From a virus (Duplodnaviria; Heunggongvirae; Uroviricota; Caudoviricetes): a stretch of DNA of 25,739 bases. Positions 1 to 25,739 of the stretch are shown here, one piece after another (the first letter of the stretch is position 1; the number at the start of each line of letters is the position of its first letter). The notes under the pieces are model-generated. The model ran no database searches, was not told where the DNA came from, and saw only the letters and a program-made list of their open reading frames with translations. The translations under genes and the position numbers were made by a program. The stretch lies in IMG/VR virus record IMGVR_UViG_2675903417_000004. One strand, 5' to 3'.

Positions 1-64
1 AGTACCAGCGTACGGCCCACAGAATGATGTCACGCTGAAAATGCCGGCCTTTGAATGGGTTCAT
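1..64 (-). CDS. tnpA: IS26 transposase, N-terminal fragment (continues beyond window start)
   Basis: rc of 1-64 encodes MNPFKGRHFQRDIILWAVRWY..., the known N-terminus of Tnp26. Confidence 0.85.
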   Translation of the reverse strand, partial: MNPFKGRHFQRDIILWAVRWY

Positions 65-127
65 GTGCAGCTCCATCAGCAAAAGGGGATGATAAGTTTA
101 TCACCACCGACTATTTGCAACAGTGCC
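1..127 (-). mobile_element. IS26 (IS6 family), partial copy at window edge; terminal inverted repeat at 114-127, transposase reading leftward out of window
   Basis: Sequence 114-127 TTTGCAACAGTGCC is the reverse complement of the IS26 terminal IR GGCACTGTTGCAAA; positions 1-113 match the IS26 left end including the tnpA start (rc ATG at 62-64). Recognised from memory of IS26, not searched. Confidence 0.9.
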
Positions 128-414
128 AACTGAAGAATATCGCCTTCGATAGTCTCCACGCACTGGACCTGGATTTCCCCAGAGTTTCGAATTGGACCGT
201 GCTGGTTGAACTTCACACCATTCGGACCATAGTCCTCCACATCCTCGCGGGTCATTTCAGGAATTTGCGACGTGCGAACCAGTACGCTGATATCTTCATG
301 GCCTGCAAAAGTGAGCTGGAATTCAGAAGATACCAGTCGTTCGCCTTTGGCCGCGTTGGCAGTATAGCGGCCCTTAATAAATTTACGGTTTCCCTTAGTG
401 TTATTGTGCCCCAT
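128..414 (-). pseudogene. phage hypothetical protein gene, 3' end replaced by IS26 (the track ORF 76..414 takes its last 17 codons from IS26)
   Basis: ORF starts at ATG 414 with an AAGGA Shine-Dalgarno; the reading frame runs straight into the IS26 IR at 127. Confidence 0.5.
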
Positions 415-425
415 ATAAAATCCTT

Positions 426-1007
426 TTACTGGAACGCCCGAACAATATCGGAGCTGTTATATATCGAAGAACCGGTCAACTGGAGGTTGACGGTGTTTTT
501 CAGGAAATGTCCATTGCTGTCCCTGGGCGCATCGAGATCGAAACTTATGTCCTGGATAGCGACATCAATGATGTTGATCCGGCGACCAATGTTTAGCGTC
601 ACACGCTCCGGGATTCGACCACCAATACTGGCATCTTTAAGTTCCGGGCTAATCATCGCTGACAATGCGGCGATAGCTCCTGAAACCTCCGTGAATGGGT
701 CAAACAAAGCGATGAAAGTTACTGGCAGCGTGAAAGTCGGCGGTGTTCCCCCTTCCCAAACCATTAAGCTGTTCCAACGGGCAACCGACGTTGTTTCAGT
801 ACCAACCTGCGCAAAACCACTGAAGGCACCAGCAACAGATCCCATGGACATACCGGTAAACGGCGCTTCCCAATTCTGGGCCATGTTCATTGCCGCTCCC
901 TGGCTGATATATCCGGTAACCTGGTACTGAGAGTTCGTTAAAGTAACTTTCAGATATGGCGATACACCGTCAGCCTGGCTGTAAACCCCATAAGGAATAG
1001 GTGCCAT
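426..1007 (-). CDS. phage structural protein, possibly the tail tube protein (193 aa)
   Basis: Lies downstream of the putative sheath gene in the same operon; size fits the roughly 21 kDa P1 tube protein. Assignment rests on size and position only. Confidence 0.4.
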   Translation of the reverse strand: MAPIPYGVYSQADGVSPYLKVTLTNSQYQVTGYISQGAAMNMAQNWEAPFTGMSMGSVAGAFSGFAQVGTETTSVARWNSLMVWEGGTPPTFTLPVTFIALFDPFTEVSGAIAALSAMISPELKDASIGGRIPERVTLNIGRRINIIDVAIQDISFDLDAPRDSNGHFLKNTVNLQLTGSSIYNSSDIVRAFQ

Positions 1008-1042
1008 TCAAGTTAAAGGCCGGAGTTCTCCGGCCTCCTCCT

Positions 1043-1858
1043 TTAGCCAAGGCGCTTACGGCGCAGTTTCATTGACTTTTTGCGGGCAAGTTTTGCCGCG
1101 CCGGTCTGGGCTTTTCGACGCGCTTTTTTCAGCGCCGATTTTTGAGCCGCAGTCAGACGTTTTTTACGCAGGCGTTTACGGATGAGTTTGATCTCACCGT
1201 TACGAACAACCTTCTTAAATGCTTCAGTCAGCATTTCATCAGAAGTGCCAGCAACAACAAACGCCGCTTCCAGTTCGTCGCGGTCGTCGCTATCTAAACC
1301 AGCGATAGAGGCACCAACATCAGCAGCTGCGTCGTCGTCTTCATCGTCAGCCAGTGCTTCGATCAGGTCATCATCTACACCGCATGCTGCGAGGAAGTCA
1401 GCAACATTTGCCCATGCTTCGTTATAGGCATCGTCCTGTTCTTCTGTAACTTCGGAGTCGTCGTCATCAGAGATACCAGCGATAGCCTGAACGAAACCAT
1501 CAAGGGAGTCGAAAGTCAGATCACCGCTATCAGCCCAGGCGAAAACGGCGTCGGCCGCATCACTCAACGCATTTTGCATAGCACTTCGATTTGCAGCTTC
1601 CAGAATCATCTGGTGCGCCTGTTCGACGGTCCATTCTTTACCGTCTTTCCCTTCCAGGATTTGCTCAGGAGCCTGGGCAGATGGAACGTTATCGTTAGTC
1701 TGTGCCGCCGGTTCCGGATTATTATTAATAATCGGATCTGTTGGCGGTTCAGCGCTTGCTCGGGCAGACTCCATCAGCTGCACAGGATCAGAGTTCAAAG
1801 CGAAACGAGACAGTCCATTCCCCAAAAATGCCCCGGATTGAAAAAAGTTTTTGCTCAT
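1043..1858 (-). CDS. highly acidic protein with a polybasic Lys/Arg-rich C-terminal tail (271 aa), function unknown
   Basis: ATG at 1858 preceded by AAGGGA; D/E-rich body; last ~50 aa KLIRKRLRKKRLTAAQKSALKKARRKAQTGAAKLARKKSMKLRRKRLG. Confidence 0.55.
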   Translation of the reverse strand: MSKNFFQSGAFLGNGLSRFALNSDPVQLMESARASAEPPTDPIINNNPEPAAQTNDNVPSAQAPEQILEGKDGKEWTVEQAHQMILEAANRSAMQNALSDAADAVFAWADSGDLTFDSLDGFVQAIAGISDDDDSEVTEEQDDAYNEAWANVADFLAACGVDDDLIEALADDEDDDAAADVGASIAGLDSDDRDELEAAFVVAGTSDEMLTEAFKKVVRNGEIKLIRKRLRKKRLTAAQKSALKKARRKAQTGAAKLARKKSMKLRRKRLG

Positions 1859-1867
1859 TGTATTCCC

Positions 1868-24898: not shown

Positions 24899-24917
24899 AT
24901 TTTACTGCTAGTCATTT
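24899..24917 (-). promoter_or_regulatory. candidate P1-type late promoter for the baseplate/morphogenesis operon
   Basis: On the minus strand AAATGACTA-GCAG-TAAAAT; same architecture and spacing as the element at 5276-5302. Confidence 0.35.
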
Positions 24918-24940
24918 GTTGAAAATTTAACTTAATAAAA

Positions 24941-24957
24941 GAAAATTATTAGTGCAA
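24941..24957 (-). promoter_or_regulatory. C1 operator-like site in the divergent intergenic region
   Basis: rc ATTGCACTAATAATTTT matches the C1 operator consensus at 15 of 17 positions. Confidence 0.4.
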
Positions 24958-25015
24958 TTTTGATTATGAAATGTATCATTCTGCCCTTAAGTAGGTTCTT
25001 CACGAGGAAACAAAA

Positions 25016-25261
25016 TTGGCAGAACGTGTTGATGATGCAGAGCTGAGCATGAATCAGTTAGAAGCTCTCAAAGACATGGCCATCGATAACATCAGAAAGC
25101 AGGCACAGGTCGTGAGCCAGGTATTTACAGGGAAGTGTCGTTACTGCAATGAATCGATTGAATCAGGCATTTATTGTGACGCTGAATGTGCGCAATGGCA
25201 CAGGGAAGAGCAGGCTGCAAAACAGCGTAAATATGGCATGCGACCGGCAGGATTTGACTGA
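25016..25261 (+). CDS. TraR/DksA-family-like C4 zinc-finger protein (81 aa, TTG start with GAGGAAA Shine-Dalgarno)
   Basis: CRYC...CDAECAQWHREEQAAKQRKY resembles the TraR zinc-finger C-terminus (CVECQAYQERQRKHY). Confidence 0.55.
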   Translation: MAERVDDAELSMNQLEALKDMAIDNIRKQAQVVSQVFTGKCRYCNESIESGIYCDAECAQWHREEQAAKQRKYGMRPAGFD

Positions 25262-25263
25262 TT

Positions 25264-25612
25264 ATGTTGCGCTTTACTGAGGAAGAGTTTCAGGCTTTTA
25301 GTGAGCGTCGAAATAAGGGGCGGTCCAGGCCAAAAACCAAAAAGGATCCATTCTTATCGCTTGCGCCGGTAAAAGAAGTTTCTCCACATGCGAAGGCACT
25401 TGCAGCACTGGCAAAGAACCCAGACCTGCGCGACGGAAATTGCGAGCACTTCGAGCAGGTTTTCATTTTTGATTACTTCGAACGCAAGCACCCTGACATC
25501 TATGAGCTGTTGCATGCAACGCCTAACGGAGGGAAACGTTCAAAAGCAACCGCCGGGAAAATGAAGGCTGAAGGGCAGAAAAAAGGTTATCCGGACATGA
25601 GTCTCGATAAAG
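25264..25612 (+). pseudogene. VRR-NUC-like nuclease gene, 3' end truncated by IS26 (track ORF to 25629 takes its last codons from IS26)
   Basis: HATPNGGKRSKATAGKMKAEGQKKGYPDMSLDKG matches the VRR-NUC PD-(D/E)xK core up to the PD motif; the frame then enters the IS26 IR at 25613. Confidence 0.55.
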
Positions 25613-25739
25613 GGCACTGTTGCAAATAGTCGGTGGTGATAAACTTATCATCCCCTTTTGCTGATGGAGCTGCACATGAACCCATTCAAAGGCCGGCATT
25701 TTCAGCGTGACATCATTCTGTGGGCCGTACGCTGGTACT
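25613..25739 (+). mobile_element. IS26 (IS6 family), partial copy at window edge; terminal IR at 25613-25626, transposase reading rightward out of window
   Basis: GGCACTGTTGCAAA followed by the IS26 left-end sequence and tnpA start ATG at 25676. Confidence 0.9.
25676..25739 (+). CDS. tnpA: IS26 transposase, N-terminal fragment (continues beyond window end)
   Basis: MNPFKGRHFQRDIILWAVRWY... from ATG 25676. Confidence 0.85.
   Translation, partial: MNPFKGRHFQRDIILWAVRWY

Follow-up and report, generated by a model that had tools for sequence, protein, structure and literature searches.

IS26 ends on both sides of a P1-like IncY phage-plasmid segment: a draft contig probably bounded by two opposite insertions

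The virus record IMGVR_UViG_2675903417_000004 (Caudoviricetes), a stretch of 25,739 nucleotides (nt) hereafter called the window, begins and ends with the same end of the insertion sequence IS26 and holds between them a part of a P1-like phage-plasmid. The question raised by this locus is what the inverted IS26 pair means. A preliminary description had proposed an IncY backbone of the P1 type remodelled by IS26, as often seen next to resistance regions, the pair being a product of intramolecular replicative transposition with inversion. The explanation that accounts best for the observations, and that we consider very likely, is that the window is a draft contig covering the stretch of a P1-like phage-plasmid located between two IS26 insertions of opposite orientation, each with an 8-bp target duplication, and that the assembly was broken at IS26.

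Exact look-ups of the two open reading frames (ORFs) fused at its junctions identify the window as the entire contig JXVP01000064.1 (25,739 bp) of the Escherichia coli draft genome GCA_000948675.1, an accession that was not found in a literature search. Positions 1-127 and 25613-25739 are exact reverse complements; the inverted identity is exactly 127 nt and the flanks differ beyond it. The IS26 reference was an annotated copy extracted from the Escherichia fergusonii plasmid p18B233LT1 (820 bp, terminal repeats GGCACTGTTGCAAA, tnp26 at 64-768), and both ends of the window are identical to its positions 1-127 (127/127). Each stub contains the left inverted repeat (IRL) and the first 64 nt of tnp26, i.e., codons 1-21; the 14-bp inverted repeat GGCACTGTTGCAAA is located at 114-127 (reverse complement) and at 25613-25626.

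1-127, minus strand: left IS26 stub (IS26 1-127), with IRL at 114-127 and tnp26 codons 1-21 running leftwards out of the window
25613-25739, plus strand: right IS26 stub (IS26 1-127), with IRL at 25613-25626 and tnp26 codons 1-21 running rightwards out of the window

The stubs presumably belong to full 820-bp IS26 copies; judged from the sequence, variants that differ elsewhere in the element (IS15DI-type) would remain compatible with the 127-nt match. Two claims of the preliminary description are thus confirmed: the exact reverse-complement 127-nt ends are those of IS26, since they match positions 1-127 of an annotated copy, and the copies are inverted and outward-facing, the transposase reading out of the window on both sides.

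As each border of the segment is formed by IRL, the ends must come from two distinct IS26 copies that lie in opposite orientation. The direct orientation, i.e., one IRL and one right inverted repeat (IRR) facing the segment, was not found. With the same IS26 end on both sides the segment cannot be circularised through a single IS26, which excludes a translocatable unit or a pseudo-compound transposon with direct repeats. The arrangement found, i.e., two inverted IS26 bracketing a segment with IRL at both ends, is the one expected of trans intramolecular transposition.

The equal length of the stubs is most simply explained by k-mer overlaps of the assembler into a collapsed IS26 repeat, since in a de Bruijn assembly a unique segment meeting a collapsed repeat leads to equal repeat stubs at the contig ends. 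The largest default k of SPAdes is 127. The 127 nt probably correspond to one assembler k-mer, set by the assembly rather than by biology. A contig that stops 127 nt inside IS26 is silent on the DNA beyond either copy. From a methodological point of view, when a window coincides with a draft contig and both its ends carry repeat stubs of equal length, this points to a break in the assembly and should not be taken for the anatomy of a mobile element.

The left boundary (127/128) corresponds to P1 53677 and falls within bplB (baseplate/tail tube; P1 53454-53963, minus strand), of which codons 1-95 are kept. The right boundary (25612/25613) corresponds to P1 79198 and falls within pmgM (P1 78850-79428), of which codons 1-116 are kept. 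The cut genes and the 8-bp targets (amino acids abbreviated as aa) are the following.

76-414, minus strand: truncated bplB (codons 1-95, 128-414) running into IS26, a 112-aa fusion ORF (WP_244469468.1, E. coli)
25264-25629, plus strand: truncated pmgM (codons 1-116, 25264-25612) running into IS26, a 121-aa fusion ORF
128-135: left 8-bp target AACTGAAG (P1 53677-53684), duplicated by the left IS26; partial BplB proteins start at Q95/F96, empty site in loci L021 and L023
25605-25612: right 8-bp target CGATAAAG (P1 79191-79198), duplicated by the right IS26; partial PmgM protein starts at D115, empty site in loci L014 and L015

The preliminary description had already placed a structural gene at the left cut and a «VRR-NUC-like» gene at the right one. 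Both cuts stand, but the VRR-NUC label is weak: full-length PmgM scores 21.2 bits against the Pfam family, below the cutoff of 23.8, and the truncated form gives no match.

Both sites are found uninterrupted in very close relatives. On the right, L014 and L015 align to the window up to exactly 25612, with 2 mismatches over about 15-16.5 kb; past this point they continue with an intact pmgM, then pmgN, pmgP, ppp and further usual P1 genes. On the left, L021 and L023 (1 mismatch in 11,731 nt) have an intact bplB, followed by hok, repL, kilA and ant. Two sister contigs (L024, L025; GCA_003917735.1, GCA_017136335.1) are 100% identical to the window over the 11.7 kb compared. They are 25,481 and 25,479 bp long and stop just before the left junction, at a distance of 1 and 3 nt, respectively.

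The far-side halves of both genes were recovered as partial proteins. The PmgM variant of this lineage reads …EYMSLKK… where P1 reads …EYISLKK…, and a «partial» 78-aa PmgM (residues 115-192) of the lineage variant (P0088) is located at a contig end and starts at D115; P1-type equivalents that start inside the target octamer also exist (P0089, P0090). For BplB, «partial» proteins covering residues 95-169 (P0092) and 96-169 (P0091) are located at contig ends, on seven contigs of which the longest has 1,629 bp. By codon arithmetic, D115 corresponds to P1 79192-79194 and Q95 to P1 53681-53679. The duplicated target bases are thus found on both sides of IS26, the minimum being 7 of 8 bp at the right site and 5 of 8 bp at the left one; 8-bp target duplications, which the preliminary description had advised to look for in inverted orientation, are in this way indirectly seen in sister assemblies. 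Far-side halves that start inside the octamers, together with the empty sites, indicate that both IS26 copies arrived by transposition with an 8-bp duplication and without adjacent deletion. The C-terminal BplB fragment EFN4850115.1 and the protein EFN4850188.1 (PmgM 1-116, on a 25,478-bp contig) are separated by 73 accession numbers; as these are assigned sequentially, both probably come from one annotated genome.

In the proposed mechanism, one IS26 would have entered bplB, duplicating AACTGAAG, and one pmgM, duplicating CGATAAAG, without loss of adjoining DNA. The assembler would then have merged all IS26 copies in one repeat node, the contig halting one k-mer (127 nt) in. In this strain the far-side junctions would be expected to read ...CCTTGATGAACTGAAG followed by GGCACTGTTGCAAAGTTAGCG and ...TTTGCAACAGTGCC followed by CGATAAAGCATGCGG.

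The junctions are not peculiar to one assembly. Their fusion ORFs recur in metagenomes and in assemblies from NCBI, ENA and Logan that are independent of one another and differ in assembler and k value. The right-junction ORF was found in 45 collection blocks and the left one in 5. This asymmetry was considered as a sign of an older pmgM::IS26 insertion and rejected: it is largely technical, because 52 nt of IS26 or more must be present for the left fusion ORF, against only 17 for the right one, and the metagenome contigs examined carry 51-59 nt. Contigs with the right junction reach 25,739 bp at most. Neither junction has a record in PLSDB or in 5,426 complete E. coli genomes, about 600-700 of which contain the intact sites, and a DNA search did not find them in IMG/VR or in the GTDB representatives either.

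Several points weigh against the proposed explanation: (i) the assembler and its k are presumed, and this strain is readable only to 127 nt into each IS26; (ii) the reciprocal halves are known from sister isolates and not from GCA_000948675.1 itself, and the link between the two halves in one genome relies on the adjacency of accession numbers; (iii) the gene calls of the 15-billion-protein collection hold no reciprocal fragments of the k=127 form from NCBI assemblies (neither the 94-aa nor the 80-aa fusion with an IS26 leader occurs), and the 59-aa C-terminal BplB fragment is recorded only from Logan and ENA; (iv) the reciprocal contigs reach no more than 1,629 bp on the bplB side and 2,245 bp on the pmgM side, so that there are breaks near both sites, possibly further IS copies, and the rest of the P1 genome may be damaged as well. 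More generally, the modelled IRR-leader fusion ORFs (94, 80 and 47 aa) and internal-start fragments, whether of P1 type or of lineage type, are absent from this collection, and the predicted reciprocal junctions (IRR, 8-bp duplication, P1 continuation) were not found in complete E. coli genomes, in JGI metagenomes or, for the left one only, in IMG/VR.

The reciprocal contigs are reproducibly short: their far ends fall near the start of repL on the left (about 1.6 kb away, as placed on L021) and near the ppp/pmgQ boundary on the right (about 2.2 kb away, on L014). L021 and L014 themselves assemble straight through these positions, where the lineage with IS26 probably has a repeat of some kind, possibly additional IS copies.

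Two other readings of the far-side sequences were tried. A deletion adjacent to IS26, suggested by the missing reciprocal ORFs, was rejected once the partial proteins starting in the octamers were found. A protein with an IS26-IRL leader and a PmgM C-terminus (P0004) is not the reciprocal junction: the corresponding contig (L010, 1-120) shows a separate IS26 of opposite orientation at P1 79208, and this insertion lies 9 bp from the pmgM site of the window.

How the two insertions arose is a second question. The intramolecular transposition invoked in the preliminary description can be specified as follows: a resident IS26 in pmgM or bplB would have transposed in trans into the other gene, which in one step would have created the second copy and inverted the 25.5-kb segment that carries rep and par with respect to the remaining P1 genome. 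The inverted copies with IRL facing the segment on both sides are predicted by this pathway (PMC4471558), as is the duplication of both target octamers, and since no right-junction contig exceeds 25,739 bp the two junctions seem to travel together; clonal descent, however, explains their co-occurrence equally well. He et al. diagnose the trans intramolecular pathway by matched octamers, mutually inverted, that flank different IS26 copies (PMC4471558). When the products are worked through, with T and T2 for the two octamers, the four junctions are the same under either history (bplB3'-T/IRR, IRL/T-bplB5', pmgM5'-T2/IRL, IRR/T2-pmgM3'), two independent insertions giving identical junction sequences; the products differ only in which IS26 interior joins which pair of junctions. 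Moreover, RecA recombination between inverted 820-bp copies interconverts these products, so that even a finished sequence shows only the present orientation. The inverted orientation of the IS26 copies is therefore by itself no sign of an intramolecular inversion. On grounds of parsimony, He et al. prefer a single step to an inversion that comes after a second insertion (PMC4471558). It is on parsimony only that the one-step inversion is kept, tentatively, as a possible history. The contrary case named in the preliminary description, i.e., simple independent insertions in an otherwise colinear and complete P1-like genome, largely corresponds to what is shown by the reciprocal halves in the sister assemblies and by the empty sites in the near-identical relatives, except for the completeness of the rest of the genome.

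A remnant or hybrid, in which most of the P1 genome would be lost or replaced and the IncY rep-par block would be linked through the IS26 pair with either a resistance region or a different replicon, is unlikely. P1-like elements that turned into plain plasmids, often with resistance genes, are documented (PMC10879196). Among the 1,347 PLSDB records matching the interior of the window, 236 are typed mobilizable or conjugative, and the 454-kb IncHI1B+IncY plasmid NZ_CP034659.1 has IS26 copies within its P1 part. The reciprocal contigs of the sister isolates reach only 1.6 and 2.2 kb, and the expected reciprocal ORFs were not found for GCA_000948675.1. Against this, the far-side halves of bplB and pmgM in sister assemblies carry the duplicated bases, hence there is no deletion at either junction; all 24 uncut interior genes are intact, dbn excepted; and the near-identical relatives are ordinary P1-like elements.

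It is very improbable that the inverted IS26 pair and the 25.5 kb behave as a unit, either as a composite element carrying the IncY replicon, the partition genes, the Ban helicase and three transfer RNA (tRNA) genes between replicons, or as a recombinational flip-flop. The short reciprocal contigs and the presence of the same junctions on slightly diverged metagenome backbones (L007, L008) are compatible with movement between P1-like backbones. If the flip-flop existed, its two orientations would connect the interrupted late operons differently. Finally, an assembly artefact (chimeric join or contamination, with no IS26 truly at these sites) can practically be dismissed: the equal size of the stubs is indeed set by the assembler, but independent NCBI, ENA and Logan assemblies with differing assemblers and k share these junction ORFs, the sister contigs end at most 3 nt from the same boundary, and the reciprocal fragments begin inside the target octamers.

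The draft contig between two IS26 insertions, as preferred here, holds a complete maintenance region.

7773-9215, minus strand: nine incA iterons (7773-8056), repA (8058-8918), five incC iterons (8970-9077) and the rest of oriR to about 9215
5363-7664, minus strand: parS (5363-5445), parB (5491-6456) and parA (6453-7664), of P7 type; Pfam ParB, HTH_54 and AAA_31

The replicon has all the elements of IncY, i.e., RepA, five incC and nine incA iterons of 19 bp, and oriR. The repeat families (D1, D2, D5) show an iteron layout as in P1, with the incA iterons arranged 6 + 3. The replicon is 97% identical to P1 from 61484 onward, and RepA, which contains Rep3_N (Pfam), is 100% identical to that of plasmid CP063718.1, typed IncY. 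The complete parA-parB-parS module is present. Positions 5201-9229 are 98.6% identical to P7; parS matches P7 at 79 of 83 positions, and parA is only about 65% identical to that of P1. The maintenance region is thus a mosaic, with a P7-type parS-parB-parA beside a P1/P7-type repA-iteron replicon. The complete maintenance set claimed by the preliminary description (repA with iterons, oriR, parABS) is present, with the correction that its partition module is of P7 and not of P1 type.

With replication and partition intact, persistence as an IncY plasmid is expected. On the other hand, bplB is disrupted and polarity is probable on the genes downstream of the insertions (pmgF after bplB, pmgN and those beyond it after pmgM), which would make the loss of virion production likely. 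The element would therefore still replicate as an IncY plasmid yet no longer form virions. It should be noted that bplB is among the 21 «extremely conserved» genes of 77 P1-like phage-plasmids (PMC9603915), and that P1-like phage-plasmids drift into plain plasmids, often with resistance genes (PMC10879196). IS26 insertions in P1-like IncY phage-plasmids, and the conversion of the latter to defective phages kept as plasmids, are already documented. The biological weight of the present case is low, i.e., an instance of a well-known phenomenon seen at the end of a draft contig. The lineage nevertheless exists in public data under both ancestral (empty-site) and derived (two-IS26) forms, which could serve the epidemiological tracking of this plasmid lineage.

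The interior of the window (128-25612, 25,485 bp) is colinear with P1 53677-79198 at about 97-98.5% identity, and matches the complete 93-kb IncY plasmid CP063718.1 (pVPS18EC0801-3) in a single piece at 98.4% identity. The gene order thus agrees with that of P1 and of this plasmid. With the exception of dbn, the 24 uncut interior genes are intact, i.e., full length and 94-100% identical to CP063718.1. Besides the maintenance region, they are distributed as follows.

426-5224, minus strand: pmgG (426-1007), 21 (1043-1858), 22, tail sheath (1868-3457), and 23, major capsid (3518-5224); full length, 99-100% aa identity to CP063718.1
9236-14716, mixed strands: upfA, mlp, ppfA, upfB and upfC (minus), uhr, hrdC (rdgC-like) and dmt, 672 aa (plus); from the P1 annotation, CP063718.1 and Pfam
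15405-17438, plus strand: tRNA-Asn (15405-15480), tRNA-Thr (15483-15558), SPFH/Band-7 gene (16508-17335) and CAT-anticodon tRNA (17363-17438)
17720-20071, plus strand: ban, DnaB-like helicase (17720-19084), then inactivated dbn (19084-20071); from comparison with CP063718.1 and Pfam
20118-25261, both strands: baseplate/tail genes 5, 6, 24, 7, 25 and 26 (minus, 20118-24869) and pmgL (plus, 25016-25261); full length, 99-100% aa identity

The morphogenesis genes of the interior are only pmgG, 21, 22, 23, 5, 6, 24, 7, 25, 26 and pmgL. In P1, the genes for immunity (c1), the lytic replicon (repL), packaging (pac), lysis and the remainder of the head and tail sets are located outside 53677-79198. 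The preliminary description was right in recognising a P1-like IncY backbone with only a part of these genes. Its link to adjacent resistance regions is not borne out: no resistance gene or other foreign DNA was seen in the window or in any related locus reached, and no mob gene or oriT was seen. Pfam supports RepA, ParA, ParB, Ban, Dmt and the SPFH/Band-7 protein. The three tRNA genes occupy the P1 positions, and an Rfam scan found nothing besides them; the one with the CAT anticodon (17363-17438) is tRNA-Ile2 in the P1 annotation.

The only uncut gene that is not intact, dbn, has an 11-bp deletion (GGCGTCGAAAG, adjoining a CCCC run) after position 19245 (19245/19246) with reference to both P1 and CP063718.1. 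The resulting frameshift leads to ORFs of 59 and 238 aa. This allele, a convenient marker of the sub-lineage, was found in 92 collection blocks, on contigs of up to 50-200 kb, but in no PLSDB plasmid.

Some interior regions depart from P1. The tciA-tciB-tciC genes are replaced (window 16258-17353) by the gene of a 275-aa SPFH/Band-7 protein, as in CP063718.1; tciABC is one of eight regions that vary strongly among P1-like elements (PMC9603915). Within dmt (12698-14716), the stretch 13420-13603 has no alignment to P1. The protein has 672 aa here and in CP063718.1, P1 dmt having 2,265 nt, and both methylase domains (C5 and N6/D12) are still detected.

The locus can be compared with three known systems. 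The IS26 ends resemble IS26 of the IS6 family (He et al. 2015, PMC4471558; Harmer & Hall 2016, PMC4894685) by the 127 identical nt, which include the 14-bp inverted repeat and the start of tnp26, and by the 8-bp target duplications. The inverted pair around a large plasmid segment has the geometry of the trans intramolecular transposition by which IS26 reorganises plasmids. The difference is that only 127 nt per copy are visible and that no resistance gene is adjacent within the window. With the P1/P7 phage-plasmids (Punavirus, IncY; P1 NC_005856, P7 NC_050152, CP063718.1) the window shares RepA with 5 + 9 iterons and the P1 gene order, including the tRNA genes, ban, dmt and the tail and head genes. 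It differs from them by the interruption of bplB and pmgM by IS26, by the 11-bp frameshift in dbn and by the SPFH/Band-7 gene in place of tciABC. P1-derived or hybrid plasmids (Pfeifer & Rocha 2024, PMC10879196; NZ_CP034659.1) likewise have IS hits in essential phage genes with plasmid maintenance intact, but in the window gene loss is demonstrated only at the two interruptions and in dbn. NZ_CP034659.1 (L018, L019), a conjugative E. coli plasmid, clearly illustrates the fusion of a P1 backbone into a large plasmid; it has IS26 just downstream of bplB and beside icd, and ISSen4 beyond ppp.

The backbones that carry the right junction are not all equally close to the window. Two metagenome contigs with an identical pmgM::IS26 junction (L007, L008) have 26-29 differences from window 20149-25671 (5.5 kb), the nearest about 500 bp from the junction; a third locus (L006) has only 4 differences in 10.4 kb. 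The divergence of the first two could reflect either a junction moved by recombination between P1-like backbones or a mixed-strain metagenome consensus.

Other public assemblies have pmgM interruptions at several positions of an interval of about 130 bp (P1 ~79118-79250; window ~25530-25612 and beyond), and at least three further pmgM fusion junctions have unrelated leaders (P0002, P0005, P0006). Two pmgM IS26 sites, at P1 79198 and 79208, flank a small palindrome, GATAAA...TTTATC. From the sequences, this region of pmgM may be a recurrent insertion target. Outside the window, a 69-aa C-terminal fragment of P1-type PmgM (P0058) is found exactly on 485 contigs, one of them of 4.98 Mb; this spread suggests a widespread truncated or alternatively called pmgM, possibly in chromosomally integrated P1-like elements.

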